Source of the DNA: Botryllus schlosseri
Lineage: Eukaryota
Assembly (NCBI GenBank): GCA_051294905.1
Contig: CM119372.1
Location: forward strand, 10,976,001 to 11,040,000
DNA: 64,000 nucleotides
Reading direction: 5' to 3'
In this document: piece after piece, positions 1-23,000 of the stretch
Position numbering within the stretch: the stretch's first letter is position 1
How the letters are laid out: each line of letters begins with the position of its first letter
Notes under the pieces: generated by a model
Told to the model about the DNA's origin: nothing
Database searches by the model: none
What the model saw: only the letters and a program-made list of their open reading frames with translations
Program-made: the position numbers and the translations under genes

Positions 1-3000
1 GTTTCCGAAGTTAAGGTTCATTCCGCCCATACCCATGTTTGCGAAGAGGTCGCCGTATTGTCCTTTGCCTCCGTCGGTGGTGACATCAACTGCAAGATCG
101 CTATCGACGTGTGCGTCAGCGATGGCGAGAGTGTTGTCTGCTACATCGACTTCGACGCCGTGACCGCCAGAATGATCACCGTCCACATTGACGCCGAGTC
201 CCATTGGGCCCATGGCGAATTGGAATCCGTTGTTTGCGTTGGCGTGTGCAATAGCATCACCGCTTCCGTAGTGAGGTCCTCCGGTTGCGATTGCTTTAGC
301 AGCGGCGTTGTTTCCGAAGTTAAGGTTAATTCCGCCCATACCCATGTTTGCGAAGAGGTCGCCGTATTGTCCTTTGCCTCCGTCGGTGGTGACATCAACT
401 GCAAGATCGCTATCGACGTGTGCGTCAGCGATGGCGAGAGTGTTGTCTGCTACATCGACTTCGACGCCGTGATCGCCTGAATGATCACCGTCCACATTGA
501 CGCCGAGTCCCATTGGGCCCATGGCGAATTGGAATCCGTTGTTTGCGTTGGCGTGTGCAATAGCATCACCGCTTCCGTAGTGAGGTCCTCCGGTTGCGAT
601 TGCTTTAGCAGCGGCGTTGTTTCCGAAGTTAAGGTTAATTCCGCCCATACCCATGTTTGCGAAGAGGTCGCCGTATTGTCCTTTGCCTCCGTCGGTGGTG
701 ACATCAACTGCAAGATCGCTATCGACGTGTGCGTCAGCGATGGCGAGAGTGTTGTCTGCTACATCGACTTCGACGCCGTGACCGCCAGAATGATCACCGT
801 CCACATTGACGCCGAGTCCCATTGGGCCCATGGCGAATTGGAATCCGTTGTTTGCGTTGGCGTGTGCAATAGCATCACCGCTTCCGTAGTGAGGTCCTCC
901 GGTTGCGATTGCTTTAGCAGCGGCGTTGTTTCCGAAGTTAAGGTTAATTCCGCCCATACCCATGTTTGCGAAGAGGTCGCCGTATTGTCCTTTGCCTCCG
1001 TCGGTGGTGACATCAACTGCAAGATCGCTATCGACGTGTGCGTCAGCGATGGCGAGAGTGTTGTCTGCTACATCGACTTCGACGCCGTGACCGCCAGAAT
1101 GATCACCGTCCACATTGACGCCGAGTCCCATTGGGCCCATGGCGAATTGGAATCCGTTGTTTGCGTTGGCGTGTGCAATAGCATCACCGCTTCCGTAGTG
1201 AGGTCCTCCGGTTGCGATTGCTTTAGCAGCGGCGTTGTTTCCGAAGTTAAGGTTAATTCCGCCCATACCCATGTTTGCGAAGAGGTCGCCGTATTGTCCT
1301 TTGCCTCCGTCGGTGGTGACATCAACTGCAAGATCGCTATCGACGTGTGCGTCAGCGATGGCGAGAGTGTTGTCTGCTACATCGACTTCGACGCCGTGAC
1401 CGCCAGAATGATCACCGTCCACATTGACGCCGAGTCCCATTGGGCCCATGGCGAATTGGAATCCGTTGTTTGCGTTGGCGTGTGCAATAGCATCACCGCT
1501 TCCGTAGTGAGGTCCTCCGGTTGCGATTGCTTTAGCAGCGGCGTTGTTTCCGAAGTTAAGGTTAATTCCGCCCATACCCATGTTTGCGAAGAGGTCGCCG
1601 TATTGTCCTTTGCCTCCGTCGGTGGTGACATCAACTGCAAGATCGCTATCGACGTGTGCGTCAGCGATGGCGAGAGTGTTGTCTGCTACATCGACTTCGA
1701 CGCCGTGACCGCCAGAATGATCACCGTCCACATTGACGCCGAGTCCCATTGGGCCCATGGCGAATTGGAATCTGTTGTTTGCGTTGGCGTGTGCAATAGC
1801 ATCACCGCTTCCGTAGTGAGGTCCTCCGGTTGCGATTGCTTTAGCAGCGGCGTTGTTTCCGAAGTTAAGGTTAATTCCGCCCATACCCATGTTTGCGAAG
1901 AGGTCGCCGTATTGTCCTTTGCCTCCGTCGGTGGTGACATCAACTGCAAGATCGCTATCGACGTGTGCGTCAGCGATGGCGAGAGTGTTGTCTGCTACAT
2001 CGACTTCGACGCCGTGATCGCCTGAATGATCACCGTCCACATTGACGCCGAGTCCCATTGGGCCCATGGCGAATTGGAATCCGTTGTTTGCGTTGGCGTG
2101 TGCAATAGCATCACCGCTTCCGTAGTGAGGTCCTCCGGTTGCAATTGCTTTAGCAGCGGCGTTGTTTCCGAAGTTAAGGTTAATTCCGCCCATACCCATG
2201 TTTGCGAAGAGGTCGCCGTATTGTCCTTTGCCTCCGTCGGTGGTGACATCAACTGCAAGATCGCTATCGACGTGTGCGTCAGCGATGGCGAGAGTGTTGT
2301 CTGCTACATCGACTTCGACGCCGTGACCGCCAGAATGATCACCGTCCACATTGACGCCGAGTCCCATTGGGCCCATGGCGAATTGGAATCCGTTGTTTGC
2401 GTTGGCGTGTGCAATAGCATCACCGCTTCCGTAGTGAGGTCCTCCGGTTGCGATTGCTTTAGCAGCGGCGTTGTTTCCGAAGTTAAGGTTAATTCCGCCC
2501 ATACCCATGTTTGCGAAGAGGTCGCCGTATTGTCCTTTGCCTCCGTCGGTGGTGACATCAACTGCAAGATCGCTATCGACGTGTGCGTCAGCGATGGCGA
2601 GAGTGTTGTCTGCTACATCGACTTCGACGCCGTGACCGCCAGAATGATCACCGTCCACATTGACGCCGAGTCCCATTGGGCCCATGGCGAATTGGAATCC
2701 GTTGTTTGCGTTGGCGTGTGCAATAGCATCACCGCTTCCGTAGTGAGGTCCTCCGGTTGCGATTGCTTTAGCAGCGGCGTTGTTTCCGAAGTTAAGGTTA
2801 ATTCCGCCCATACCCATGTTTGCGAAGAGGTCGCCGTATTGTCCTTCGCCTCCGTCGGTGGTGACATCAACTGCAAGATCGCTATCGACGTGTGCGTCAG
2901 CGATGGCGAGAGTGTTGTCTGCTACATCGACTTCGACGCCGTGACCGCCAGAATGATCACCGTCCACATTGACGCCGAGTCCCATTGGGCCCATGGCGAA

Positions 3001-6000
3001 TTGGAATCCGTTGTTTGCGTTGGCGTGTGCAATAGCATCACCGCTTCCGTAGTGAGGTCCTCCGGTTGCGATTGCTTTAGCAGCGGCGTTGTTTCCGAAG
3101 TTAAGGTTAATTCCGCCCATACCCATGTTTGCGAAGAGGTCGCCGTGTTGTCCTTTGCCTCCGTCGGTGGTGACATCAACTGCAAGATCGCTATCGACGT
3201 GTGCGTCAGCGATGGCGAGAGTGTTGTCTGCTACATCGACTTCGACGCCGTGACCGCCAGAATGATCACCGTCCACATTGACGCCGAGCCCCATTGGGCC
3301 CATGGCGAATTGGAATCCGTTGTTTGCGTTGGCGTGTGCAATAGCATCACCGCTTCCGTAGTGAGGTCCTCCGGTTGCGATTGCTTTAGCAGCGGCGTTG
3401 TTTCCGAAGTTAAGGTTAATTCCGCCCATACCCATGTTTGCGAAGAGGTCGCCGTATTGTCCTTTGCCTCCGTCGGTGGTGACATCAACTGCAAGATCGC
3501 TATCGACGTGTGCGTCAGCGATGGCGAGAGTGTTGTCTGCTACATCGACTTCGACGCCGTGACCGCCAGAATGATCACCGTCCACATTGACGCCGAGTCC
3601 CATTGGGCCCATGGCGAATTGGAATCCGTTGTTTGCGTTGGCGTGTGCAATAGCATCACCGCTTCCGTAGTGAGGTCCTCCGGTTGCAATTGCTTTAGCA
3701 GCGGCGTTGTTTCCGAAGTTAAGGTTAATTCCGCCCATACCCATGTTTGCGAAGAGGTCGCCGTATTGTCCTTTGCCTCCGTCGGTGGTGACATCAACTG
3801 CAAGATCGCTATCGACGTGTGCGTCAGCGATGGCGAGAGTGTTGTCTGCTACATCGACTTCGACGCCGTGACCGCCAGAATGATCACCGTCCACATTGAC
3901 GCCGAGTCCCATTGGGCCCATGGCGAATTGGAATCCGTTGTTTGCGTTGGCGTGTGCAATAGCATCACCGCTTCCGTAGTGAGGTCCTCCGGTTGCGATT
4001 GCTTTAGCAGCGGCGTTGTTTCCGAAGTTAAGGTTAATTCCGCCCATACCCATGTTTGCGAAGAGGTCGCCGTATTGTCCTTTGCCTCCGTCGGTGGTGA
4101 CATCAACTGCAAGATCGCTATCGACGTGTGCGTCAGCGATGGCGAGAGTGTTGTCTGCTACATCGACTTCGACGCCGTGACCGCCAGAATGATCACCGTC
4201 CACATTGACGCCGAGTCCCATTGGGCCCATGGCGAATTGGAATCCGTTGTTTGCGTTGGCGTGTGCAATAGCATCACCGCTTCCGTAGTGAGGTCCTCCG
4301 GTTGCGATTGCTTTAGCAGCGGCGTTGTTTCCGAAGTTAAGGTTAATTCCGCCCATACCCATGTTTGCGAAGAGGTCGCCGTATTGTCCTTCGCCTCCGT
4401 CGGTGGTGACATCAACTGCAAGATCGCTATCGACGTGTGCGTCAGCGATGGCGAGAGTGTTGTCTGCTACATCGACTTCGACGCCGTGACCGCCAGAATG
4501 ATCACCGTCCACATTGACGCCGAGTCCCATTGGGCCCATGGCGAATTGGAATCCGTTGTTTGCGTTGGCGTGTGCAATAGCATCACCGCTTCCGTAGTGA
4601 GGTCCTCCGGTTGCGATTGCTTTAGCAGCGGCGTTGTTTCCGAAGTTAAGGTTAATTCCGCCCATACCCATGTTTGCGAAGAGGTCGCCGTGTTGTCCTT
4701 TGCCTCCGTCGGTGGTGACATCAACTGCAAGATCGCTATCGACGTGTGCGTCAGCGATGGCGAGAGTGTTGTCTGCTACATCGACTTCGACGCCGTGACC
4801 GCCAGAATGATCACCGTCCACATTGACGCCGAGCCCCATTGGGCCCATGGCGAATTGGAATCCGTTGTTTGCGTTGGCGTGTGCAATAGCATCACCGCTT
4901 CCGTAGTGAGGTCCTCCGGTTGCGATTGCTTTAGCAGCGGCGTTGTTTCCGAAGTTAAGGTTAATTCCGCCCATACCCATGTTTGCGAAGAGGTCGCCGT
5001 ATTGTCCTTTGCCTCCGTCGGTGGTGACATCAACTGCAAGATCGCTATCGACGTGTGCGTCAGCGATGGCGAGAGTGTTGTCTGCTACATCGACTTCGAC
5101 GCCGTGACCGCCAGAATGATCACCGTCCACATTGACGCCGAGTCCCATTGGGCCCATGGCGAATTGGAATCCGTTGTTTGCGTTGGCGTGTGCAATAGCA
5201 TCACCGCTTCCGTAGTGAGGTCCTCCGGTTGCGATTGCTTTAGCAGCGGCGTTGTTTCCGAAGTTAAGGTTAATTCCGCCCATACCCATGTTTGCGAAGA
5301 GGTCGCCGTATTGTCCTTTGCCTCCGTCGGTGGTGACATCAACTGCAAGATCGCTATCGACGTGTGCGTCAGCGATGGCGAGAGTGTTGTCTGCTACATC
5401 GACTTCGACGCCGTGACCGCCAGAATGATCACCGTCCACATTGACGCCGAGTCCCATTGGGCCCATGGCGAATTGGAATCCGTTGTTTGCGTTGGCGTGT
5501 GCAATAGCATCACCGCTTCCGTAGTGAGGTCCTCCGGTTGCGATTGCTTTAGCAGCGGCGTTGTTTCCGAAGTTAAGGTTAATTCCGCCCATACCCATGT
5601 TTGCGAAGAGGTCGCCGTATTGTCCTTTGCCTCCGTCGGTGGTGACATCAACTGCAAGATCGCTATCGACGTGTGCGTCAGCGATGGCGAGAGTGTTGTC
5701 TGCTACATCGACTTCGACGCCGTGACCGCCAGAATGATCACCGTCCACATTGACGCCGAGTCCCATTGGGCCCATGGCGAATTGGAATCCGTCGTTTGCG
5801 TTGGCGTGTGCAATAGCATCACCGCTTCCGTAGTGAGGTCCTCCGGTTGCGATTGCTTTAGCAGCGGCGTTGTTTCCGAAGTTAAGGTTAATTCCGCCCA
5901 TACCCATGTTTGCGAAGAGGTCGCCGTATTGTCCTTTGCCTCCGTCGGTGGTGACATCAACTGCAAGATCGCTATCGACGTGTGCGTCAGCGATGGCGAG

Positions 6001-9000
6001 AGTGTTGTCTGCTACATCGACTTCGACGCCGTGACCGCCAGAATGATCACCGTCCACATTGACGCCGAGTCCCATTGGGCCCATGGCGAATTGGAATCCG
6101 TTGTTTGCGTTGGCGTGTGCAATAGCATCACCGCTTCCGTAGTGAGGTCCTCCGGTTGCGATTGCTTTAGCAGCGGCGTTGTTTCCGAAGTTAAGGTTAA
6201 TTCCGCCCATACCCATGTTTGCGAAGAGGTCGCCGTATTGTCCTTTGCCTCCGTCGGTGGTGACATCAACTGCAAGATCGCTATCGACGTGTGCGTCAGC
6301 GATGGCGAGAGTGTTGTCTGCTACATCGACTTCGACGCCGTGACCGCCAGAATGATCACCGTCCACATTGACGCCGAGTCCCATTGGGCCCATGGCGAAT
6401 TGGAATCCGTTGTTTGCGTTGGCGTGTGCAATAGCATCACCGCTTCCGTAGTGAGGTCCTCCGGTTGCGATTGCTTTAGCAGCGGCGTTGTTTCCGAAGT
6501 TAAGGTTAATTCCGCCCATACCCATGTTTGCGAAGAGGTCGCCGTATTGTCCTTTGCCTCCGTCGGTGGTGACATCAACTGCAAGATCGCTATCGACGTG
6601 TGCGTCAGCGATGGCGAGAGTGTTGTCTGCTACATCGACTTCGACGCCGTGATCGCCTGAATGATCACCGTCCACATTGACGCCGAGTCCCATTGGGCCC
6701 ATGGCGAATTGGAATCCGTTGTTTGCGTTGGCGTGTGCAATAGCATCACCGCTTCCGTAGTGAGGTCCTCCGGTTGCGATTGCTTTAGCAGCGGCGTTGT
6801 TTCCGAAGTTAAGGTTAATTCCGCCCATACCCATGTTTGCGAAGAGGTCGCCGTATTGTCCTTTGCCTCCGTCGGTGGTGACATCAACTGCAAGATCGCT
6901 ATCGACGTGTGCGTCAGCGATGGCGAGAGTGTTGTCTGCTACATCGACTTCGACGCCGTGACCGCCAGAATGATCACCGTCCACATTGACGCCGAGTCCC
7001 ATTGGGCCCATGGCGAATTGGAATCCGTTGTTTGCGTTGGCGTGTGCAATAGCATCACCGCTTCCGTAGTGAGGTCCTCCGGTTGCGATTGCTTTAGCAG
7101 CGGCGTTGTTTCCGAAGTTAAGGTTAATTCCGCCCATACCCATGTTTGCGAAGAGGTCGCCGTATTGTCCTTTGCCTCCGTCGGTGGTGACATCAACTGC
7201 AAGATCGCTATCGACGTGTGCGTCAGCGATGGCGAGAGTGTTGTCTGCTACATCGACTTCGACGCCGTGACCGCCAGAATGATCACCGTCCACATTGACG
7301 CCGAGTCCCATTGGGCCCATGGCGAATTGGAATCCGTTGTTTGCGTTGGCGTGTGCAATAGCATCACCGCTTCCGTAGTGAGGTCCTCCGGTTGCGATTG
7401 CTTTAGCAGCGGCGTTGTTTCCGAAGTTAAGGTTAATTCCGCCCATACCCATGTTTGCGAAGAGGTCGCCGTATTGTCCTTTGCCTCCGTCGGTGGTGAC
7501 ATCAACTGCAAGATCGCTATCGACGTGTGCGTCAGCGATGGCGAGAGTGTTGTCTGCTACATCGACTTCGACGCCGTGACCGCCAGAATGATCACCGTCC
7601 ACATTGACGCCGAGTCCCATTGGGCCCATGGCGAATTGGAATCCGTTGTTTGCGTTGGCGTGTGCAATAGCATCACCGCTTCCGTAGTGAGGTCCTCCGG
7701 TTGCGATTGCTTTAGCAGCGGCGTTGTTTCCGAAGTTAAGGTTAATTCCGCCCATACCCATGTTTGCGAAGAGGTCGCCGTATTGTCCTTTGCCTCCGTC
7801 GGTGGTGACATCAACTGCAAGATCGCTATCGACGTGTGCGTCAGCGATGGCGAGAGTGTTGTCTGCTACATCGACTTCGACGCCGTGACCGCCAGAATGA
7901 TCACCGTCCACATTGACGCCGAGTCCCATTGGGCCCATGGCGAATTGGAATCCGTTGTTTGCGTTGGCGTGTGCAATAGCATCACCGCTTCCGTAGTGAG
8001 GTCCTCCGGTTGCGATTGCTTTAGCAGCGGCGTTGTTTCCGAAGTTAAGGTTAATTCCGCCCATACCCATGTTTGCGAAGAGGTCGCCGTATTGTCCTTT
8101 GCCTCCGTCGGTGGTGACATCAACTGCAAGATCGCTATCGACGTGTGCGTCAGCGATGGCGAGAGTGTTGTCTGCTACATCGACTTCGACGCCGTGACCG
8201 CCAGAATGATCACCGTCCACATTGACGCCGAGTCCCATTGGGCCCATGGCGAATTGGAATCCGTTGTTTGCGTTGGCGTGTGCAATAGCATCACCGCTTC
8301 CGTAGTGAGGTCCTCCGGTTGCGATTGCTTTAGCAGCGGCGTTGTTTCCGAAGTTAAGGTTAATTCCGCCCATACCCATGTTTGCGAAGAGGTCGCCGTA
8401 TTGTCCTTTGCCTCCGTCGGTGGTGACATCAACTGCAAGATCGCTATCGACGTGTGCGTCAGCGATGGCGAGAGTGTTGTCTGCTACATCGACTTCGACG
8501 CCGTGACCGCCAGAATGATCACCGTCCACATTGACGCCGAGTCCCATTGGGCCCATGGCGAATTGGAATCCGTTGTTTGCGTTGGCGTGTGCAATAGCAT
8601 CACCGCTTCCGTAGTGAGGTCCTCCGGTTGCGATTGCTTTAGCAGCGGCGTTGTTTCCGAAGTTAAGGTTAATTCCGCCCATACCCATGTTTGCGAAGAG
8701 GTCGCCGTATTGTCCTTTGCCTCCGTCGGTGGTGACATCAACTGCAAGATCGCTATCGACGTGTGCGTCAGCGATGGCGAGAGTGTTGTCTGCTACATCG
8801 ACTTCGACGCCGTGACCGCCAGAATGATCACCGTCCACATTGACGCCGAGTCCCATTGGGCCCATGGCGAATTGGAATCCGTTGTTTGCGTTGGCGTGTG
8901 CAATAGCATCACCGCTTCCGTAGTGAGGTCCTCCGGTTGCGATTGCTTTAGCAGCGGCGTTGTTTCCGAAGTTAAGGTTAATTCCGCCCATACCCATGTT

Positions 9001-12000
9001 TGCGAAGAGGTCGCCGTATTGTCCTTTGCCTCCGTCGGTGGTGACATCAACTGCAAGATCGCAATCGACGTGTGCGTCAGCGATGGCGAGAGTGTTGTCT
9101 GCTACATCGACTTCGACGCCGTGACCGCCAGAATGATCACCGTCCACATTGACGCCGAGTCCCATTGGGCCCATGGCGAATTGGAATCCGTTGTTTGCGT
9201 TGGCGTGTGCAATAGCATCACCGCTTCCGTAGTGAGGTCCTCCGGTTGCGATTGCTTTAGCAGCGGCGTTGTTTCCGAAGTTAAGGTTAATTCCGCCCAT
9301 ACCCATGTTTGCGAAGAGGTCGCCGTATTGTCCTTTGCCTCCGTCGGTGGTGACATCAACTGCAAGATCGCTATCGACGTGTGCGTCAGCGATGGCGAGA
9401 GTGTTGTCTGCTACATCGACTTCGACGCCGTGATCGCCTGAATGATCACCGTCCACATTGACGCCGAGTCCCATTGGGCCCATGGCGAATTGGAATCCGT
9501 TGTTTGCGTTGGCGTGTGCAATAGCATCACCGCTTCCGTAGTGAGGTCCTCCGGTTGCGATTGCTTTAGCAGCGGCGTTGTTTCCGAAGTTAAGGTTAAT
9601 TCCGCCCATACCCATGTTTGCGAAGAGGTCGCCGTATTGTCCTTTGCCTCCGTCGGTGGTGACATCAACTGCAAGATCGCTATCGACGTGTGCGTCAGCG
9701 ATGGCGAGAGTGTTGTCTGCTACATCGACTTCGACGCCGTGACCGCCAGAATGATCACCGTCCACATTGACGCCGAGTCCCATTGGGCCCATGGCGAATT
9801 GGAATCCGTTGTTTGCGCTGGCGTGTGCAATAGCATCACCGCTTCCGTAGTGAGGTCCTCCGGTTGCGATTGCTTTAGCAGCGGCGATGTTTCCGAAGTT
9901 AAGGTTAATTCCGCCCATACCCATGTTTGCGAAGAGGTCGCCGTATTGTCCTTTGCCTCCGTCGGTGGTGACATCAACTGCAAGATCGCTATCGACGTGT
10001 GCGTCAGCGATGGCGAGAGTGTTGTCTGCTACATCGACTTCGACGCCATGACCGCCAGAATGATCACCGTCCACATTGACGCCGAGTCCCATTGGGCCCA
10101 TGGCGAATTGGAATCCGTTGTTTGCGTTGGCGTGTGCAATAGCATCACCGCTTCCGTAGTGAGGTCCTCCGGTTGCGATTGCTTTAGCAGCGGCGTTGTT
10201 TCCGAAGTTAAGGTTAATTCCGCCCATACCCATGTTTGCGAAGAGGTCGCCGTATTGTCCTTTGCCTCCGTCGGTGGTGACATCAACTGCAAGATCGCTA
10301 TCGACGTGTGCGTCAGCGATGGCGAGAGTGTTGTCTGCTACATCGACTTCGACGCCGTGACCGCCAGAATGATCACCGTCCACATTGACGCCGAGTCCCA
10401 TTGGGCCCATGGCGAATTGGAATCCGTTGTTTGCGTTGGCGTGTGCAATAGCATCACCGCTTCCGTAGTGAGGTCCTCCGGTTGCGATTGCTTTAGCAGC
10501 GGCGTTGTTTCCGAAGTTAAGGTTAATTCCGCCCATACCCATGTTTGCGAAGAGGTCGCCGTATTGTCCTTTGCCTCCGTCGGTGGTGACATCAACTGCA
10601 AGATCGCTATCGACGTGTGCGTCAGCGATGGCGAGAGTGTTGTCTGCTACATCGACTTCGACGCCGTGACCGCCAGAATGATCACCGTCCACATTGACGC
10701 CGAGTCCCATTGGGCCCATGGCGAATTGGAATCCGTTGTTTGCGTTGGCGTGTGCAATAGCATCACCGCTTCCGTAGTGAGGTCCTCCGGTTGCGATTGC
10801 TTTAGCAGCGGCGTTGTTTCCGAAGTTAAGGTTAATTCCGCCCATACCCATGTTTGCCAAGAGGTCGCCGTATTGTCCTTTGCCTCCGTCGGTGGTGACA
10901 TCAACTGCAAGATCGCTATCGACGTGTGCGTCAGCGATGGCGAGAGTGTTGTCTGCTACATCGACTTCGACGCCGTGACCGCCAGAATGATCACCGTCCA
11001 CATTGACGCCGAGTCCCATTGGGCCCATGGCGAATTGGAATCCGTTGTTTGCGTTGGCGTGTGCAATAGCATCACCGCTTCCGTAGTGAGGTCCTCCGGT
11101 TGCGATTGCTTTAGCAGCGGCGTTGTTTCCGAAGTTAAGGTTAATTCCGCCCATACCCATGTTTGCGAAGAGGTCGCCGTATTGTCCTTTGCCTCCGTCG
11201 GTGGTGACATCAACTGCAAGATCGCTATCGACGTGTGCGTCAGCGATGGCGAGAGTGTTGTCTGCTACATCGACTTCGACGCCGTGACCGCCAGAATGAT
11301 CACCGTCCACATTGACGCCGAGTCCCATTGGGCCCATGGCGAATTGGAATCCGTTGTTTGCGTTGGCGTGTGCAATAGCATCACCGCTTCCGTAGTGAGG
11401 TCCTCCGGTTGCGATTGCTTTAGCAGCGGCGTTGTTTCCGAAGTTAATGTTAATTCCGCCCATACCCATGTTTGCGAAGAGGTCGCCGTATTGTCCTTTG
11501 CCTCCGTCGGTGGTGACATCAACTGCAAGATCGCTATCGACGTGTGCGTCAGCGATGGCAAGAGTGTTGTCTGCTACATCGACTTCGACGCCGTGACCGC
11601 CAGAATGATCACCGTCCACATTGACGCCGAGTCCCATTGGGCCCATGGCGAATTGGAATCCGTTGTTTGCGTTGGCGTGTGCAATAGCATCACCGCTTCC
11701 GTAGTGAGGTCCTCCGGTTGCGATTGCTTTAGCAGCGGCGTTGTTTCCGAAGTTAAGGTTAATTCCGCCCATACCCATGTTTGCGAAGAGGTCGCCGTAT
11801 TGTCCTTTGCCTCCGTCGGTGGTGACATCAACTGCAAGATCGCTATCGACGTGTGCGTCAGCGATGGCGAGAGTGTTGTCTGCTACATCGACTTCGACGC
11901 CGTGACCGCCAGAATGATCACCGTCCACATTGACGCCGAGTCCCATTGGGCCCATGGCGAATTGGAATCCGTTGTTTGCGTTGGCGTGTGCAATAGCATC

Positions 12001-14020
12001 ACCGCTTCCGTAGTGAGGTCCTCCGGTTGCGATTGCTTTAGCAGCGGCGTTGTTTCCGAAGTTAAGGTTAATTCCGCCCATACCCATGTTTGCGAAGAGG
12101 TCGCCGTATTGTCCTTTGCCTCCGTCGGTGGTGACATCAACTGCAAGATCGCTATCGACGTGTGCGTCAGCGATGGCGAGAGTGTTGTCTGCTACATCGA
12201 CTTCGACGCCGTGACCGCCAGAATGATCACCGTCCACATTGACGCCGAGTCCCATTGGGCCCATGGCGAATTGGAATCCGTTGTTTGCGTTGGCGTGTGC
12301 AATAGCATCACCGCTTCCGTAGTGAGGTCCTCCGGTTGCGATTGCTTTAGCAGCGGCGTTGTTTCCGAAGTTAAGGTTAATTCCGCCCATACCCATGTTT
12401 GCGAAGAGGTCGCCGTATTGTCCTTTGCCTCCGTCGGTGGTGACATCAACTGCAAGATCGCTATCGACGTGTGCGTCAGCGATGGCGAGAGTGTTGTCTG
12501 CTACATCGACTTCGACGCCGTGATCGCCTGAATGATCACCGTCCACATTGACGCCGAGTCCCATTGGGCCCATGGCGAATTGGAATCCGTTGTTTGCGTT
12601 GGCGTGTGCAATAGCATCACCGCTTCCGTAGTGAGGTCCTCCGGTTGCGATTGCTTTAGCAGCGGCGTTGTTTCCGAAGTTAAGGTTAATTCCGCCCATA
12701 CCCATGTTTGCGAAGAGGTCGCCGTATTGTCCTTTGCCTCCGTCGGTGGTGACATCAACTGCAAGATCGCTATCGACGTGTGCGTCAGCGATGGCGAGAG
12801 TGTTGTCTGCTACATCGACTTCGACGCCGTGACCGCCAGAATGATCACCGTCCACATTGACGCCGAGTCCCATTGGGCCCATGGCGAATTGGAATCCGTT
12901 GTTTGCGTTGGCGTGTGCAATAGCATCACCGCTTCCGTAGTGAGGTCCTCCGGTTGCGATTGCTTTAGCAGCGGCGTTGTTTCCGAAGTTAAGGTTAATT
13001 CCGCCCATACCCATGTTTGCGAAGAGGTCGCCGTATTGTCCTTTGCCTCCGTCGGTGGTGACATCAACTGCAAGATCGCTATCGACGTGTGCATCAGCGA
13101 CGGCGAGAGTGTTGTCTGCTACATCGACTTCGACGCCGTGACCGCCAGAATGATCACCGTCCACATTGACGCCGAGTCCCATTGGGCCCATGGCGAATTG
13201 GAATCCGTTGTTTGCGTTGGCGTGTGCAATAGCATCACCGCTTCCGTAGTGAGGTCCTCCGGTTGCGATTGCTTTAGCAGCGGCGTTGTTTCCGAAGTTA
13301 AGGTTAATTCCGCCCATACCCATGTTTGCGAAGAGGTCGCCGTATTGTCCTTTGCCTCCGTCGGTGGTGACATCAACTGCAAGATCGCTATCGACGTGTG
13401 CGTCAGCGATGGCGAGAGTGTTGTCTGCTACATCGACTTCGACGCCGTGACCGCCAGAATGATCACCGTCCACATTGACGCCGAGTCCCATTGGGCCCAT
13501 GGCGAATTGGAATCCGTTGTTTGCGTTGGCGTGTGCAATAGCATCACCGCTTCCGTAGTGAGGTCCTCCGGTTGCGATTGCTTTAGCAGCGGCGTTGTTT
13601 CCGAAGTTAAGGTGAATTCCGCCCATACCCATGTTTGCGAAGAGGTCGCCGTATTGTCCTTTGCCTCCGTCGGTGGTGACATCAACTGCAAGATCGCTAT
13701 CGACGTGTGCGTCAGCGATGGCGAGAGTGTTGTCTGCTACATCGACTTCGACGCCGTGACCGCCAGAATGATCACCGTCCACATTGACGCCGAGTCCCAT
13801 TGGTCCCATGGCGAATTGGAATCCGTTGTTTGCGTTGGCGTGTGCAATAGCATCACCGCTTCCGTAGTGAGGTCCTCCGGTTGCGATTGCTTTAGCAGCG
13901 GCGTTGTTTCCGAAGTTAAGGTTAATTCCGCCCATACCCATGTTTGCGAAGAGGTCGCCGTATTGTCCTTTGCCTCCGTCGGTGGTGACATCAACTGCAA
14001 GATCGCTATCGACGTGTGCG
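1..14020. repeat. Type-A unit block (~45 near-identical units; C-terminal side of the visible protein)
   Basis: Diagnostic + strand states: catggcgaa, gtgtgcaat, ggttgcgattgc, gtttccgaa, catgtttgc, tccgtcggt, gctatcgac, gatggcgag, gacttcgac, cacattgacgccgag. Last A marker ~14008; first B marker (gatagc) ~14029. Confidence 0.95.
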
Positions 14021-17000
14021 TCAGCGATAGCGAGAGTGTTGTCTGCTACATCGACATCGACGCCGTGACCGCCAGAATGATCACCGTCCACGTTGACGGC
14101 GAGTCCCATTGGGCCCATGCCGAATTGGAATCCGTTGTTTGCGTTGGCGTGAGCAATAGCGTCACCGCTTGCGTAGTGAGGGCCTCCGGCTGCGATCGCT
14201 TTAGCAGCGGCGTTGTTTGCGAAGTTAAGGTTAATTCCGCCCATACCCATGCTTGCGAAGAGGTCGCCGTATTGTCCTTTGCCTCCTTCGGTGGTGACAT
14301 CAACTGCAAGATCGCTGTCGACGTGTGCGTCAGCGATAGCGAGAGTGTTGTCTGCTACATCGACATCGACGCCGTGACCGCCAGAATGATCACCGTCCAC
14401 GTTGACGGCGAGTCCCATTGGGCCCATGCCGAATCGGAAACCGTTGTTTGCGTTGGCGTGAGCAATAGCGTCACCGCTTCCGTAGTGAGGTCCTCCGGAT
14501 GCGATCGCTTTAGCAGCGGCGTTGTTCGCGAAGTTAAGGTTAATTCCGCCCATACCCATGCTTGCGAAGAGGTCGCCGTATTGTCCTTTGCCTCCTTCGG
14601 TGGTGACATCAACTGCAAGATCGCTGTCGACGTGTGCGTCAGCGATAGCGAGAGTGTTGTCTGCTACATCGACATCGACGCCGTGACCGCCAGAATGATC
14701 ACCGTCCACGTTGACGGCGAGTCCCATTGGGCCCATGCCGAATTGGAATCCGTTGTTTGCGTTGGCGTGAGCAATGGCGTCACCGCTTCCGTAGTGAGGT
14801 CCTCCGGCTGCGATCGCTTTAGCAGCGGCGTTGTTTGCGAAGTTAAGGTTAATTCCGCCCATACCCATGCTTGCGAAGAGGTCGCCGTATTTTCCTTTGC
14901 CTCCTTCGGTGGTGACATCAACTGCAAGATCGCTGTCGACGTGTGCGTCAGCGATAGCGAGAGTGTTGTCTGCTACATCGACATCGACGCCGTGACCGCC
15001 AGAATGATCACCGTCCACGTTGACGGCGAGTCCCATTGGGCCCATGCCGAATTGGAATCCGTTGTTTGCGTTGGCGTGAGCAATAGCGTCACCGCTTCCG
15101 TAGTGAGGTCCTCCGGCTGCGATCGCTTTAGCAGCGGCGTTGTTAGCGAAGTTAAGGTTAATTCCGCCCATACCCATGCTTGCGAAGAGGTCGCCGTATT
15201 GTCCTTTGCCTCCTTCGGTGGTGACATCAACTGCAAGATCGCTGTCGACGTGTGCGTCAGCGATAGCGAGAGTGTTGTCTGCTACATCGACATCGACGCC
15301 GTGACCGCCAGAATGATCACCGTCCACGTTGACGGCGAGTCCCATTGGGCCCATGCCGAATTGGAATCCGTTGTTTGCGTTTGCGTGAGCAATAGCGTCA
15401 CCGCTTCCGTAGTGAGGTCCTCCGGCTGCGATCGCTTTAGCAGCGGCGTTGTTAGCGAAGTTAAGGTTAACTCCGCCCATACCCATGCTTGCGAAGAGGT
15501 CGCCGTATTGTCCTTTGCCTCCTTCGGTGGTGACATCAACTGCAAGATCGCTGTCGACGTGTGCGTCAGCGATAGCGAGAGTGTTGTCTGCTACATCGAC
15601 ATCGACGCCGTGACCGCCAGAATGATCACCGTCCACGTTGACGGCGAGTCCCATTGGGCCCATGCCGAATTGGAATCCGTTGTTTGCGTTGGCATGAGCA
15701 ATAGCGTCACCGCTTCCGTAGTGAGGTCCTCCGGCTGCGATCGCTTTAGCAGCGGCGTTGTTTGCGAAGTTAAGGTTAATTCCGCCCATACCCATGCTTG
15801 CGAAGAGGTCGCCGTATTGTCCTTTGCCTCCTTCGGTGGTGACATCAACTGCAAGATCGCTGTCGACGTGTGCGTCAGCGATAGCGAGAGTGTTGTCTGC
15901 TACATCGACATCGACGCCGTGACCACCAGAATGATCACCGTCCACGTTGACGGCGAGTCCCATTGGGCCCATGCCGAATTGGAATTCGTTGTTTGCGTTG
16001 GCGTGAGCAATAGCGTCACCGCTTCCGTAGTGAGGTCCTCCGGCTGCGATCGCTTTAGCAGCGGCGTTGTTTGCGAAGTTAAGGTTAATTCCGCCCATAC
16101 CCATGCTTGCGAAGAGGTCGCCGTATTGTCCTTTGCCTCCTTCGGTGGTGACATCAACGGCAAGATCGCTGTCGACGTGTGCGTCAGCGATAGCGAGAGT
16201 ATTGTCTGCGATATCGACATCGACGCCGTGACCGCCAGAATGATCACCGTCCACGTTGACGGCGAGTCCCATTGGGCCCATGCCAAATTGGAATCCGTTG
16301 TTTGCGTTGGCGTGAGCAATAGCGTCACCGCTTCCGTAGTGAGGTCCTCCGGATGCGATCGCTTTAGCAGCGGCGTTGTTTGCGAAGTTAAGGTTAATTC
16401 CGCCCATACCCATGCTTGCGAAGATGTCGCCGTATTTTCCTTTGCCTCCTTCGGTGGTGACATCAACTGCAAGATCGCTGTCGACGTGTGCGTCAGCGAT
16501 AGCGAGAGTGTTGTCTGCTACATCGACATCGACGCCGTGACCGCCAGAATGATCACCGTCCATGTTGACGGCGAGTCCCATTGGGCCCATGCCGAATTGG
16601 AATCCGTTGTTTGCGTTGGCGTGAGCAATAGCGTCACCGCTTCCGTAGTGAGGTCCTCCGGCTGCGATCGCTTTAGCAGCGGCGTTGTTTGCGAAGTTAA
16701 GGTTAATTCCGCCCATACCCATGCTTGCGAAGAGGTCGCCGTATTGTCCTTTGCCTCCTTCGGTGGTGACATCAACTGCAAGATCGCTGTCGACGTGTGC
16801 GTCAGCGATAGCGAGAGTGTTGTCTGCTACATCGACATTGACGCCGTGACCGCCAGAATGATCACCGTCCACGTTGACGGCGAGTCCCATTGGGCCCATG
16901 CCGAATTGGAATCCGTTGTTTGCGTTGGCGTGAGCAATAGCGTCACCGCTTCCGTAGTGAGGTCCTCCGGCTGCGATCGCTTTAGCAGCGGCGTTGTTTG

Positions 17001-20000
17001 CGAAGTTAAGGTTAATTCCGCCCATACCCATGCTTGCGAAGAGGTCGCCGTATTGTCCTTTGCCTCCTTCGGTGGTGACATCAACTGCAAGATCGCTGTC
17101 AACGTGTGCGTCAGCGATAGCGAGAGTATTGTCTGCGATATCGACATCGACGCCGTGACCGCCAGAATGATCACCGTCCACGTTGACGGCGAGTCCCATT
17201 GGGCCCATGCCGAATTGGAATCCGTTGTTTGCGTTGGCGTGAGCAATAGCGTCACCGCTTCCGTAGTGAGGTCCTCCGGATGCGATCGCTTTAGCAGCGG
17301 CGTTGTTCGCGAAGTTAAGGTTAATTCCGCCCATACCCATGCTTGCGAAGAGGTCGCCGTATTTTCCTTTGCCTCCTTCGGTGGTGACATCAACTGCAAG
17401 ATCGCTGTCGACGTGTGCGTCAGCGATAGCGAGAGTGGTGTCTGCTACATCGACATCGACGCCGTGACCGCCAGAATGATCACCGTCCACATTGACGGCG
17501 AGTCCCATTGGGCCCATGCCGAATTGGAATTCGTTGTTTGCGTTGGCGTGTGCAATAGCATCACCGCTTCCGTAGTGAGGTCCTCCGGTTGCGATTGCTT
17601 TAGCAGCGGCGTTGTTTCCGAAGTTAAGGTTAATTCCGCCCATACCCATGTTTGCGAAGAGGTCGCCGTATTGTCCTTTGCCTCCGTCGGTGGTAACATC
17701 AACTGCAAGATCGCTATCGACGTGTGCGTCAGCGATGGCGAGAGTGTTGTCTGCTACATCGACTTCGACGCCGTGACCGCCAGAATGATCACCGTCCACA
17801 TTGACGCCGAGTCCCATTGGGCCCATGGCGAATTGGAATCCGTTGTTTGCGTTGGCGTGTGCAATGGCATCACCGCTTCCGTAGTGAGGTCCTCCGGTTG
17901 CGATTGCTTTAGCAGCGGCGTTGTTTCCGAAGTTAAGGTTAATTCCGCCCATACCCATGTTTGCGAAGAGGTCGCCGTATTGTCCTTTGCCTCCGTCGGT
18001 GATGACTTCAACTGCAAGATCGCTATCGACGTGTGCGTCAGCGATGGCGAGAGTGTTGTCTGCTACATCGACATCGACGCCGTGACCGCCAGAATGATCA
18101 CCGTCCACATTGACGCCGAGTCCCATTGGGCCCATGGCGAATTGGAATCCGTTGTTTGCGTTGGCGTGTGCAATAGCATCACCGCTTCCGTAGTGAGGTC
18201 CTCCGGTTGCGATTGCTTTAGCAGCGGCGTTGTTTCCGAAGTTAAGGTTAATTCCGCCCATACCCATGTTTGCGAAGAGGTCGCCGTATTGTCCTTTGCT
18301 TCCTTCGGTGGTGACATCAACTGCAAGATCGCTGTCGACGTGTGCGTCAGCGATAGCGAGAGTATTGTCTGCGATATCGACATCGACGCCGTGACCGCCA
18401 GAATGATCACCGTCCACGTTGACGGCGAGTCCCATTGGGCCCATGCCGAATTGGAATCCGTTGTTTGCGTTGGCGTGAGCAATAGCGTCACCGCTTCCGT
18501 AGTGAGGTCCTCCGGCTGCGATCGCTTTAGCAGCGGCGTTGTTTGCGAAGTTAAGGTTAATTCCGCCCATACCCATGCTTGCGAAGAGGTCGCCGTATTG
18601 TCCTTTGCCTCCTTCGGTGGTGACATCAACTGCAAGATCGCTGTCGACGTGTGCGTCAGCGATAGCGAGAGTGTTGTCTGCGATATCGACATCGACGCCG
18701 TGACCACCAGAATGATCACCGTCCACGTTGACGGCGAGTCCCATTGGGCCCATGCCGAATTGGAATCCGTTGTTTGCGTTGGCGTGAGCAATAGCGTCAC
18801 CGCTTCCGTAGTGAGGTCCTCCGGCTGCGATCGCTTTAGCAGCGGCGTTGTTTGCGAAGTTAAGGTTAATTCCGCCCATACCCATGCTTGCGAAGAGGTC
18901 GCCGTATTGTCCTTTGCCTCCTTCGGTGGTGACATCAACTGCAAGATCGCTGTCGACGTGTGCGTCAGCGATAGCGAGAGTGTTGTCTGCTACATCGACA
19001 TCGACGCCGTGACCGCCAGAATGATCACCGTCCACGTTGACGGCGAGTCCCATTGGGCCCATGCCGAATTGGAATCCGTTGTTTGCGTTGGCGTGAGCAA
19101 TAGCGTCACCGCTTGCGTAGTGAGGGCCTCCGGCTGCGATCGCTTTAGCAGCGGCGTTGTTTGCGAAGTTAAGGTTAATTCCGCCCATACCCATGCTTGC
19201 GAAGAGGTCGCCGTATTGTCCTTTGCCTCCTTCGGTGGTGACATCAACTGCAAGATCGCTGTCGACGTGTGCGTCAGCGATAGCGAGAGTGTTGTCTGCT
19301 ACATCGACATCGACGCCGTGACCGCCAGAATGATCACCGTCCACGTTGACGGCGAGTCCCATTGGGCCCATGCCGAATCGGAAACCGTTGTTTGCGTTGG
19401 CGTGAGCAATAGCGTCACCGCTTCCGTAGTGAGGTCCTCCGGATGCGATCGCTTTAGCAGCGGCGTTGTTCGCGAAGTTAAGGTTAATTCCGCCCATACC
19501 CATGCTTGCGAAGAGGTCGCCGTATTGTCCTTTGCCTCCTTCGGTGGTGACATCAACTGCAAGATCGCTGTCGACGTGTGCGTCAGCGATAGCGAGAGTG
19601 TTGTCTGCTACATCGACATCGACGCCGTGACCGCCAGAATGATCACCGTCCACGTTGACGGCGAGTCCCATTGGGCCCATGCCGAATTGGAATCCGTTGT
19701 TTGCGTTGGCGTGAGCAATAGCGTCACCGCTTCCGTAGTGAGGTCCTCCGGCTGCGATCGCTTTAGCAGCGGCGTTGTTTGCGAAGTTAAGGTTAATTCC
19801 GCCCATACCCATGCTTGCGAAGAGGTCGCCGTATTTTCCTTTGCCTCCTTCGGTGGTGACATCAACTGCAAGATCGCTGTCGACGTGTGCGTCAGCGATA
19901 GCAAGAGTGTTGTCTGCTACATCGACATCGACGCCGTGACCGCCAGAATGATCACCGTCCACGTTGACGGCGAGTCCCATTGGGCCCATGCCGAATTGGA

Positions 20001-23000
20001 ATCCGTTGTTTGCGTTGGCGTGAGCAATAGCGTCACCGCTTCCGTAGTGAGGTCCTCCGGCTGCGATCGCTTTAGCAGCGGCGTTGTTAGCGAAGTTAAG
20101 GTTAATTCCGCCCATACCCATGCTTGCGAAGAGGTCGCCGTATTGTCCTTTGCCTCCTTCGGTGGTGACATCAACTGCAAGATCGCTGTCGACGTGTGCG
20201 TCAGCGATAGCGAGAGTGTTGTCTGCTACATCGACATCGACGCCGTGACCGCCAGAATGATCACCGTCCACGTTGACGGCGAGTCCCATTGGGCCCATGC
20301 CGAATTGGAATCCGTTGTTTGCGTTGGCGTGAGCAATAGCGTCACCGCTTCCGTAGTGAGGTCCTCCGGCTGCGATCGCTTTAGCAGCGGCGTTGTTAGC
20401 GAAGTTAAGGTTAACTCCGCCCATACCCATGCTTGCGAAGAGGTCGCCGTATTGTCCTTTGCCTCCTTCGGTGGTGACATCAACTGCAAGATCGCTGTCG
20501 ACGTGTGCGTCAGCGATAGCGAGAGTGTTGTCTGCTACATCGACATCGACGCCGTGACCGCCAGAATGATCACCGTCCACGTTGACGGCGAGTCCCATTG
20601 GGCCCATGCCGAATTGGAATCCGTTGTTTGCGTTGGCATGAGCAATAGCGTCACCGCTTCCGTAGTGAGGTCCTCCGGCTGCGATCGCTTTAGCAGCGGC
20701 GTTGTTTGCGAAGTTAAGGTTAATTCCGCCCATACCCATGCTTGCGAAGAGGTCGCCGTATTGTCCTTTGCCTCCTTCGGTGGTGACATCAACTGCAAGA
20801 TCGCTGTCGACGTGTGCGTCAGCGATAGCGAGAGTGTTGTCTGCTACATCGACATCGACGCCGTGACCACCAGAATGATCACCGTCCACGTTGACGGCGA
20901 GTCCCATTGGGCCCATGCCGAATTGGAATTCGTTGTTTGCGTTGGCGTGAGCAATAGCGTCACCGCTTCCGTAGTGAGGTCCTCCGGCTGCGATCGCTTT
21001 AGCAGCGGCGTTGTTTGCGAAGTTAAGGTTAATTCCGCCCATACCCATGCTTGCGAAGAGGTCGCCGTATTGTCCTTTGCCTCCTTCGGTGGTGACATCA
21101 ACGGCAAGATCGCTGTCGACGTGTGCGTCAGCGATAGCGAGAGTATTGTCTGCGATATCGACATCGACGCCGTGACCGCCAGAATGATCACCGTCCACGT
21201 TGACGGCGAGTCCCATTGGGCCCATGCCAAATTGGAATCCGTTGTTTGCGTTGGCGTGAGCAATAGCGTCACCGCTTCCGTAGTGAGGTCCTCCGGCTGC
21301 GATCGCTTTAGCAGCGGCGTTGTTAGCGAAGTTAAGGTTAATTCCGCCCATACCCATGCTTGCGAAGATGTCGCCGTATTTTCCTTTGCCTCCTTCGGTG
21401 GTGACATCAACTGCAAGATCGCTGTCGACGTGTGCGTCAGCGATAGCGAGAGTGTTGTCTGCTACATCGACATCGACGCCGTGACCGCCAGAATGATCAC
21501 CGTCCACATTGACGGCGAGTCCCATTGGACCCATGCCGAATTGGAATCCGTTGTTTGCGTTGGCGTGAGCAATAGCGTCACCGCTTCCGTAGTGAGGTCC
21601 TCCGGCTGCGATCGCTTTAGCAGCGGCGTTGTTAGCGAAGTTAAGGTTAATTCCACCCATACCCATGCTTGCGAAGAGGTCGCCGTATTGTCCTTTGCCT
21701 CCTTCGGTGGTGACATCAACTGCAAGATCGCTGTCGACGTGTGCGTCAGCGATAGCGAGAGTGTTGTCTGCTACATCGACATCGACGCCGTGACCGCCAG
21801 AATGATCACCGTCCATGTTGACGGCGAGTCCCATTGGGCCCATGCCGAATTGGAATCCGTTGTTTGCGTTGGCGTGAGCAATAGCGTCACCGCTTCCGTA
21901 GTGAGGTCCTCCGGCTGCGATCGCTTTAGCAGCGGCGTTGTTTGCGAAGTTAAGGTTAATTCCGCCCATACCCATGCTTGCGAAGAGGTCGCCGTATTGT
22001 CCTTTGCCTCCTTCGGTGGTGACATCAACTGCAAGATCGCTGTCGACGTGTGCGTCAGCGATAGCGAGAGTGTTGTCTGCTACATCGACATCGACGCCGT
22101 GGCCGCCAGAATGATCACCGTCCACGTTGACGGCGAGTCCCATTGGGCCCATGCCGAATTGGAATCCGTTGTTTGCGTTGGCGTGAGCAATAGCGTCACC
22201 GCTTCCGTAGTGAGGTCCTCCGGCTGCGATCGCTTTAGCAGCGGCGTTGTTAGCGAAGTTAAGGTTAATTCCGCCCATACCCATGCTTGCGAAGAGGTCG
22301 CCGTATTGTCCTTTGCCTCCTTCGGTGGTGACATCAACTGCAAGATCGCTGTCAACGTGTGCGTCAGCGATAGCGAGAGTATTGTCTGCGATATCGACAT
22401 CGACGCCGTGACCGCCAGAATGATCACCGTCCACGTTGACGGCGAGTCCCATTGGGCCCATGCCGAATTGGAATCCGTTGTTTGCGTTGGCGTGAGCAAT
22501 AGCGTCACCGCTTCCGTAGTGAGGTCCTCCGGCTGCGATCGCTTTAGCAGCGGCGTTGTTTGCGAAGTTAAGGTTAATTCCGCCCATACCCATGCTTGCG
22601 AAGAGGTCGCCGTATTGTCCTTTGCCTCCTTCGGTGGTGACATCAACTGCAAGATCGCTGTCGACGTGTGCGTCAGCGATAGCGAGAGTGTTGTCTGCTA
22701 CATCGACATCGACGCCGTGACCGCGAGAATGATCACCGTCCACGTTGACGGCGAGTCCCATTGGGCCCATGCCGAATTGGAATCCGTTGTTTGCGTTGGC
22801 GTGAGCAATAGCGTCACCGCTTCCGTAGTGAGGTCCTCCGGCTGCGATCGCTTTAGCAGCGGCGTTGTTTGCGAAGTTAAGGTTAATTCCGCCCATACCC
22901 ATGCTTGCGAAGAGGTCGCCGTATTGTCCTTTGCCTCCTTCGGTGGTGACATCAACTGCAAGATCGCTGTCGACGTGTGCGTCAGCGATAGCGAGAGTGT

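Follow-up and report, generated by a model that had tools for sequence, protein, structure and literature searches.

What kind of protein, if any, is encoded by a stretch of DNA that consists from end to end of copies of a single repeat? We asked this of 64,000 nt of the Botryllus schlosseri genome (assembly GCA_051294905.1, contig CM119372.1, positions 10,976,001-11,040,000), referred to here as the window. Tandem Repeats Finder reports one array over positions 1-64000 of the window, with a period of 309 bp, 207.1 copies, 98% matches and 0% indels. The minus-strand frame that runs from position 63999 to position 1 contains no stop in 21,333 codons and is open at both ends of the window; the other five frames contain between 8 and 1547 stops. 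This ORF (1..63999, minus strand) encodes 103 aa per repeat and, within the window, a protein mass of 2.08 MDa.

An earlier note, made from the letters of the sequence, had singled out a 103-aa repeat unit at 310..618. On the minus strand this unit is indeed free of stops (its plus-strand frame contains one), and it is one of the 207 copies; every in-phase unit aligns to it without gaps and with at most 21 mismatches. Ten of the eleven motifs quoted for the unit occur in the 310-618 copy, the exception being SGGHG, a motif of neighboring copies, which this type A unit lacks because its DHSGGHG loop carries a G-to-D variant. Similarly, the composition that had been given (G20 A16 D11) is exact for the neighboring copy at 619-927, and the 310-618 copy itself has G19 and D12. 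The statement that the repeat lacks Cys, Trp and Arg is correct for the 310-618 copy and, as regards Trp, for the whole ORF, but 1 Cys and 11 Arg residues are found elsewhere in the ORF.

To describe variation among the copies, we cut the array at GGPHYG, which yields 206 whole units, and numbered residues from the first G of this motif; the reference-phase unit at 283..591 (minus strand) is the last whole unit in the reading direction. The 206 units comprise 103 distinct DNA sequences and 74 distinct protein sequences. As many as 69 of the DNA types occur only once, and two sequences recur without change in 28 and 24 of the units. The mean number of base differences between units rises from 4.0 at a lag of 1 to 15.4 at a lag of 160, and a 10-unit duplication is present at a lag of 11. 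Seven diagnostic residues (23, 30, 44, 70, 82, 93 and 103) separate two sub-types, which differ by 13 bases and by these 7 residues: 67 units are type A and 127 are pure type B. The sub-types are grouped into blocks, and mosaic units occur where the blocks meet. On the minus strand, a block of 44 type-A units occupies 283..13878 and a block of 70 type-B units occupies 42307..63936; between them (13879..42306) type-A and type-B blocks are interleaved and include 25 type-B units at 18514-26238 and 17 type-A units at 26548-31800. This is the pattern that would be expected of unequal crossing-over.

The array is biological. The distance-dependent divergence, the higher-order duplications, the A/B mosaics and the presence of the repeat in DNA runs of three species labels all argue that it is real. 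In particular, parts of the stretch occur in 20 public runs from 8 studies, which carry three species labels and three metagenome labels; one of these runs may be the source of the sequence, and runs X17-X20 had small shares. When the contig sets of four runs were aligned, X1 gave 2658 pieces and X4, X14 and X6 gave 6, 1 and 5, respectively, with 11 of these 12 at 95% or above; across these four contig sets no aligned contig piece or long read spans the array. The summed contig depth of X1 is very high, a figure that is not a measure of copy number and that comes from a run that may itself be the source. (Note that the runs labeled as hot-spring or marine metagenomes were not accepted as evidence of habitat; of these, X6 alone was aligned, with 5 contigs.)

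Is the frame used as a coding sequence? Read in the minus frame, the 121 distinct base variants of the array comprise 57 synonymous changes, 64 nonsynonymous changes and no stops, and 63 of them fall on third positions. The synonymous share expected with a transition weight of 2 is 0.254, compared to the 57/121 that is observed (p 2e-7; omega about 0.39), and the synonymous excess persists among singletons (21/51). The absence of stop variants is by itself not significant (P about 0.11). An antisense frame on the plus strand, with open stretches of up to 7,971 codons, was considered as a gene and rejected as a shadow frame, having 8 stops and only 26 of the 121 variants synonymous. The tandemly repeated unit codes for protein and is under purifying selection.

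RNA reads that match the unit occur under the same species label, with 25, 111 and 43 reads in 22.2, 22.2 and 12.9 million records, respectively, the records examined representing 3-6% of each run. In the single-cell run X23, 110 of the 111 reads are second mates, nearly all of them on the minus strand, which would be the sense strand if the library was made with a 3' kit. Only 2 of the 179 RNA reads are at least 99% identical to the array. The RNA differences (best 40 of 63) amount to 32 when counted by unit position, 20 of them synonymous; among the same best 40 of 63, 16 differences have no counterpart in the window array, 12 of them synonymous. Related units that have diverged from the window copies are transcribed and constrained, and the reads that report them may derive from edge units, from another lineage or from a paralogue. 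Because the coding strand has no A-run longer than 4, oligo-dT priming inside the array is unlikely. The low RNA count weighs against high expression in the sampled libraries, unless 3' bias hides expression.

These results bear on the idea that the array is for the most part a satellite-like expansion, seldom translated over its whole length, either as a skipped exon or with a length inflated by assembly, such that the working protein would have far fewer units. The small number of RNA reads, their origin in diverged copies, the identical units that make up 28 and 24 of the 206, and the fact that no spanning long read was seen are what this idea would lead one to expect. It sits poorly, however, with the 103 distinct DNA units, the 69 singletons and the distance-dependent divergence, with the synonymous excess that singletons also display, and with 64 kb of sequence that holds neither a stop nor a frameshift; the contig depth of X1 speaks against it too, subject to the limits given above. 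We consider the idea highly improbable.

What fold might such a unit adopt? Three Gly loops (residues 1-9, 35-42 and 69-78) split it into thirds of about 34 residues, and these long loops are near-equal in length (8-10 aa). With strands picked by eye after seeing the sequence, the unit parses into three predicted 34-residue, three-stranded antiparallel meanders that are joined by the Gly loops and share one oily face. In the reference-phase unit (minus strand throughout), parity analysis places predicted meander 1 at residues 10-34 (490..564; strands 10-16, 20-25 and 28-34, with turns at about 18-19 and 26-27), meander 2 at residues 43-68 (388..465; strands 43-48, 51-59 and 62-68, with turns at about 49-50 and 60-61) and meander 3 at residues 79-102 (286..357; strands 79-85, 88-93 and 96-102, with turns at about 86-87 and 94-95). 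The long Gly/His loop of residues 35-42 lies at 466..489, and the other two long loops lie at 358-387 and 565-591.

The alternating-residue strands that the earlier note had described are borne out by comparison with shuffled sequences. Identical residues at i and i+2 number 22-23, compared to 9.5-9.7 in shuffles (a value reached by 0 of 5000), and there are 8 AxA pairs, compared to 2.4-3.0 in shuffles, with three strands of the form AxAxA. Moreover, the 170-degree hydrophobic moment is matched by only 1 and 5 of 1000 shuffles, and the 100-degree (helix) moment is not raised (862 and 945 of 1000 shuffles reach the observed value). When the loop of a hairpin has an even number of residues, the residues that share a face swap between odd and even numbering at each turn. 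On the assumption that the hairpin loops are of even length, bulky residues swap parity at 6/6 tight turns, a score equaled by 8 of 512 parity patterns, and the parity pattern is kept in 2000 of 2000 random shifts of the strand ends. The predicted oily face of type B has V, L, I, F or M at 22/29 positions. The predicted small-residue face of type B, comprising 33 positions, has 15 Ala, 4 Gly, 8 Asp/Asn and 2 bulky residues; there are 5 acidic residues per unit on this face. In the Ala strands, the lone bulky residues sit on the parity that hairpin pairing requires.

Natural variation among the units provides a check on the same prediction that is in part independent. At bulky residues of the oily face, 11/11 variants stay within VILFM when 56% would be expected to do so (p about 0.002). 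Nonsynonymous variants are 2.3 times denser in loops, the most variable class of sites, than on the oily face (25 on 60 loop sites compared to 12 on 67 oily-face sites; p about 0.01), and 7/7 of the residue differences between types A and B fall off the predicted oily face. The predicted cross-strand pair formed by residues 23 and 30 reads GA or AG in 204 of the 206 units; this G/A swap, being a single event, is only suggestive as evidence of pairing. A conserved hydrophobic face fits a folded beta module. By the Uversky charge-hydropathy criterion, too, the unit would be classed as folded (H 0.49-0.50 compared to a boundary of 0.45).

The earlier note had offered a beta-solenoid as one candidate for the module. 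Parallel beta-solenoids are built from short repeated coils stacked in register; here the thirds of the unit are not significantly alike (the best internal diagonal is equaled or exceeded in 543 of 1000 shuffles), there is no significant internal sub-repeat, and the parity flips fit antiparallel hairpins, so that the register points away from in-register parallel coils. Taken at the level of sequence, the alternation, the parity and the conserved hydrophobic face support a predicted folded, hairpin-built beta module over a parallel solenoid or a silk.

Structure prediction of tandem units with AlphaFold (AF2), followed by Foldseek, had been proposed in the earlier note as a check. When run on three units as a single sequence, AF2 gave a pLDDT of 40 and a pTM of 0.16; for two units with 45 near-identical rows the values were 34 and 0.19, with all residues below 50. 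The part of the claim that rests on alternation and on the conserved hydrophobic face is supported, and AF2 supplies no confident fold to go with it. In the two-unit model, a hairpin of residues 20-25 and 28-33 is drawn in both units (pLDDT below 50), and low-confidence helices are placed at 77-81, 96-102, 112-120, 180-184 and 199-205, in the Ala-rich segments. These helices, together with the low pLDDT of every residue, are what would be expected if the unit were an alpha/beta or largely disordered module in which the Ala-rich segments are helical over short lengths and no more than three or four hairpins form. We find such a module very unlikely: the strand moment exceeds that of shuffles and the helical moment does not, the bulky residues of the Ala strands lie on hairpin parity, and the confidence of the model is too low for its helices to count.

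Neither AF2 model, both of low confidence, contains a solenoid. Because AF2 over-predicts confident solenoids for perfect repeats (32/78 in the available text of PMC11795689), this result is mild evidence against a classic solenoid. With a low-confidence model as query, Foldseek (0 matches at E 0.001) and the VIA fold search (best Z 3.5, 0 at Z of 5 or more) are uninformative, and a complex prediction with three copies of one unit, whose own fold is uncertain, scored 0.00 and is evidence neither way. The unit may be a fold that current predictors miss.

Sequence searches agree with the view of the earlier note that the family is an unrecognised one. No Pfam family scored above cut-off for the unit (best DUF3181, E 0.0067, 17 of 23 bits), and over 40 members the nearest was Fil_haemagg_2, found in 2/40 at E 0.055, below cut-off; NCBIfam gave a chance match only (17 of 406 bits). 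Against PDB sequences there were 0 matches in one search and 4 at E 0.6-1.4 in another, and the unit had no profile or PDB-sequence match to an Ig-like extender domain. A word-index protein search confirmed 0/542, 0/1257 and 0/252 candidates and found no relative among proteins of 2750-8750 aa, phmmer against 1.84 billion representative proteins gave 0 matches at E 0.001, and two look-ups in the Atlas gave no usable match. Of the pattern matches in metagenome, prokaryote-genome and viral contigs, 0/209, 0/165 and 0/12, respectively, were confirmed. Well-known repeat patterns were also sought in the ORF: RTX, (GXY)4, MORN and curlin patterns each occur 0 times, the closest to collagen being a 9-residue (GXY)3 in each unit, in keeping with what the earlier note had said of RTX and collagen motifs. 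Low-complexity composition lowers the sensitivity of such searches, so that absence of a match is not proof of novelty; as judged by sequence comparison, the repeat module has no recognised relative in the libraries searched, and we assign the unit to no repeat family. (A bacterial giant adhesin was considered and dropped, because the collections searched gave no prokaryotic relative and because the same species label covers single-cell RNA libraries.)

Nor did we find a description of the repeat in the literature searched, a set to which the primary Ciona vWFL papers and bioRxiv supplements do not belong. The portions available of PMC10980280, PMC9953650, PMC3390340, PMC4275875 and PMC12448946 describe no such repeat; the words 'mucin', 'Willebrand' and 'giant' have 0 occurrences in the Botryllus genome paper; and vWF and mucin terms are absent from 4 supplementary files of PMC13635237.

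What, then, might the protein be? The reading we favor, to which we give a probability of roughly 0.45, is that the three-meander units are stacked as a stiff, sugar-poor rod, and that this rod likely forms the central part of a giant and probably secreted vWF/mucin-type polymer of the sea squirt. In each unit the three oily faces would close on each other to give a three-walled, prism-like shape with Ala, Gly, Asn and Asp outside. The units would then stack continuously into a rod, because successive units are joined by a loop that does not exceed in length the two found within each unit; the earlier note had likewise proposed a possible rod or fibre. The small-residue face, with its acidic residues, would be exposed to solvent and may bind divalent ions.

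It is over stacking that a competing reading departs, namely that the units are beads on a string: self-contained three-fold beta-prism or beta-sandwich domains, flexibly joined, that serve as an extender or bind glycans, metals or microbes weakly and multivalently. The evidence from alternation, parity and variation would serve this reading equally, the size and 3 x 34 layout of the unit resemble those of beta-prism lectin domains, and the lack of indels in 207 units fits a domain of fixed size. On the other hand, all three long loops have the same length (8-10 aa), which leaves none that stands out as a linker. Searches of Pfam, PDB sequences and the Atlas gave the unit no match to lectin or Ig-like families, and the sugar-binding motif of B-lectins (QxDxNxVxY) occurs 0 times in the ORF. 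We regard beads on a string as unlikely, if still a serious contender.

Returning to the continuous rod, we note that P, T and S together make up only 8.8% of residues over the 206 units and that there are no N-glycan sequons; the center therefore cannot be a glycan brush. The putative vWF/mucin-type termini would polymerise end-to-end by disulfides, as mucin and VWF biology suggests: MUC2 and VWF form C-terminal dimers and D3 disulfides and pack at a pH near 5.2-6 with Ca2+ (available text of PMC11207715 and PMC6109156). By the same analogy, the polymer would be stored in acidic, Ca2+-rich granules and then released as a thin filament. With five His residues, each unit has a net charge of -5.0 at pH 5.5 and of -9.6 at pH 8.1 (textbook pK values), which may constitute a release switch.

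The change in charge with pH could also be read in another way, in which the protein is a silk-like or functional cross-beta switch that is part-unfolded or liquid in acidic granules and whose hairpins, from many chains, zip in seawater into sheets layered with oily faces together and Ala faces together. The three AxAxA strands, a Gly content of 19% and the lack of a confident AF2 fold are in line with this reading. But such packing would bury the 5 acidic residues per unit of the small-residue face, no GAGAGS, poly-Ala (5 or more) or curlin motif is present, and position-specific conservation over 103 residues better fits a defined fold. We therefore think a cross-beta switch distinctly unlikely.

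For the stacked rod, the endostyle feeding net is our leading guess as to the most likely use, and an adhesive or tunic role is also possible. The guess is made by analogy: vWF genes mark the secretory zones of the endostyle in Ciona, and VWF transcripts appear in botryllid endostyle clusters (passages available from PMC13635237 and PMC12212465). At 0.48 nm per strand, and assuming 334 units, the calculated span of the chain is about 0.48 micrometres if three-walled, 0.72 if two-layered and 1.4 if a single sheet. The smallest mesh of the ascidian feeding net is given as 0.2 x 0.5 micrometres in the available part of PMC8790370, and the agreement with the calculated span is a coincidence of scale only. 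A bolder version of the proposal would have a new fold, a single-chain triangular beta-prism tube with the three meanders as its walls that advances about 1.4 nm per unit; a rigid strut of about 0.5 micrometres (assuming about 334 units), linked to the next through vWF-type ends; and a copy number that acts as a ruler for the rectangular net mesh. We hold this version to be a long shot; if it is true, the protein, at an assumed length of about 39,000 aa, would be in or above the size class of titin. The same part of PMC8790370 describes the chemistry of suspension-feeding mucus as poorly understood. A Cys-free unit of 103 aa is easy to express, which makes a candidate chordate feeding-net filament, or a new underwater fibre, directly testable.

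How does the predicted protein compare with known systems? Triangular beta-prisms, as found in phage tail fibres and spikes and in beta-prism lectins, consist of three antiparallel meanders that close an oily core. The pattern seen here suggests this geometry, except that one chain would supply all three walls; there is no sequence match to such prisms and no confident structural match (the Z of 3.5 was obtained with an unreliable model). Silk fibroins and spidroins carry GAGAGS or poly-Ala crystallite motifs, each of which occurs 0 times in the ORF; on this point the silk-like module entertained in the earlier note finds no support. What the array has in common with silks is alternating Ala, a Gly+Ala content of about 35%, a single very large repetitive exon and homogenised repeats; where it differs is in a unit that is acidic and His-rich and has V, L, I, F and M on one face. 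The longest exons of titin, at just over 17 kb (PMC6469411), are far shorter than the 64-kb frame described here.

Gel-forming mucins and VWF, including Ci-GFM1 of Ciona, have a huge repetitive center between polymerising ends (available text of PMC4948705, PMC6109156 and PMC11207715); in our case the ends are candidates. PTS domains of gel-forming mucins have S+T of at least about 40% and P often above 5% (PMC4948705, in the part available), values to which the array, with 8.8% for P, T and S combined and 0 sequons, does not conform. Whereas the mucin center is a glycan bottle-brush, the array resembles a folded, amphipathic beta module. Ciona possesses 17 multi-VWD proteins, in a family that swaps its central modules (available text of PMC4948705, PMC6109156 and PMC11207715), and its endostyle vWF-like genes encode secreted vWF-type proteins of the sea-squirt mucus organ (Sasaki 2003 and Yamagishi 2022, as cited in PMC13635237 and PMC12212465); vWF orthology between Ciona and Botryllus is called unclear in what is available of PMC13635237.

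Among the closest likenesses in overall layout is the adhesive protein Mlig-ap2 of a flatworm, a secreted protein of 14,794 aa with N-terminal TIL, vWD and C8 domains and a center of non-PTS repeats of 21 x 255 aa and 25 x 221 aa (available text of PMC8621496). As in Mlig-ap2, the center here is made of long non-PTS tandem repeats (207 x 103 aa), and the overall design would be shared only if vWF-type flanks hold for the Botryllus protein. Mlig-ap2 is glycosylated, whereas the array has one repeat type of 103 aa in at least 207 copies, acidic, without sequons and with few Ser or Thr. The phmmer search with the 103-aa unit gave 0 matches at E 0.001 among 1.84 billion representatives, a collection that carries no protein names and may or may not contain Mlig-ap2. 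A VWD-ended giant with a non-PTS repeat center is a layout already known from flatworm glue; the 103-aa module, which has no recognised relative in the libraries searched, behaves as a folded domain would, in more than 200 copies within a single frame. We conclude that the locus probably encodes a variant of the vWF/VWD-type giant repeat protein, with putative vWF-type ends and an undescribed module.

Units in which the A and B sub-types of the 103-aa repeat are combined as mosaics recur at block borders between positions 13879 and 42306, and the same interval contains higher-order duplications of both 10 units and 4–5 units. We infer that the mosaics and the duplications together constitute a clean record of unequal crossing-over within a coding exon.

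Contigs from X1, a public sequencing run that may be the source, were compared with positions 20000–21236 of the window, and three rearranged forms were identified at low depth (17–23). Their lengths differ from that of the window by 174 bases (195 skipped and 21 inserted), 141 bases and 351 bases, each of which is divisible by three; in two of the three, unknown letters lie between the two sides. Units of variant length that preserve the frame may exist outside the window. Two X1 contigs (depth 150/448) carry a one-base deletion at position 20931 that is absent from the window sequence itself; it either arose in sequencing or marks a disrupted copy located elsewhere. Further X1 contigs (records 1, 2, 4, 5 and 7; depth 17–33) match the unit at only 83–91%, and part of these continue into unlike sequence. 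They are likely to be degenerate first or last units or a paralogous array, and are possibly the origin of the diverged reads from RNA runs.

Frame 1 of the plus strand is nearly open across positions 1–63999, with eight stops (at 478, 2023, 6658, 9439, 12529, 36445, 38299 and 41698) and a longest open reading frame of 7,971 codons. This antisense frame behaves as a shadow of the minus-strand coding frame, but an inverted copy would be able to remain in frame.

The repeat is also present in two metagenomes, hot-spring and marine (runs X6 and X16). Because the pieces from X6, the metagenome run for which sequences were compared, are near-identical to the animal units, carry-over between samples appears likelier there than a microbial copy.
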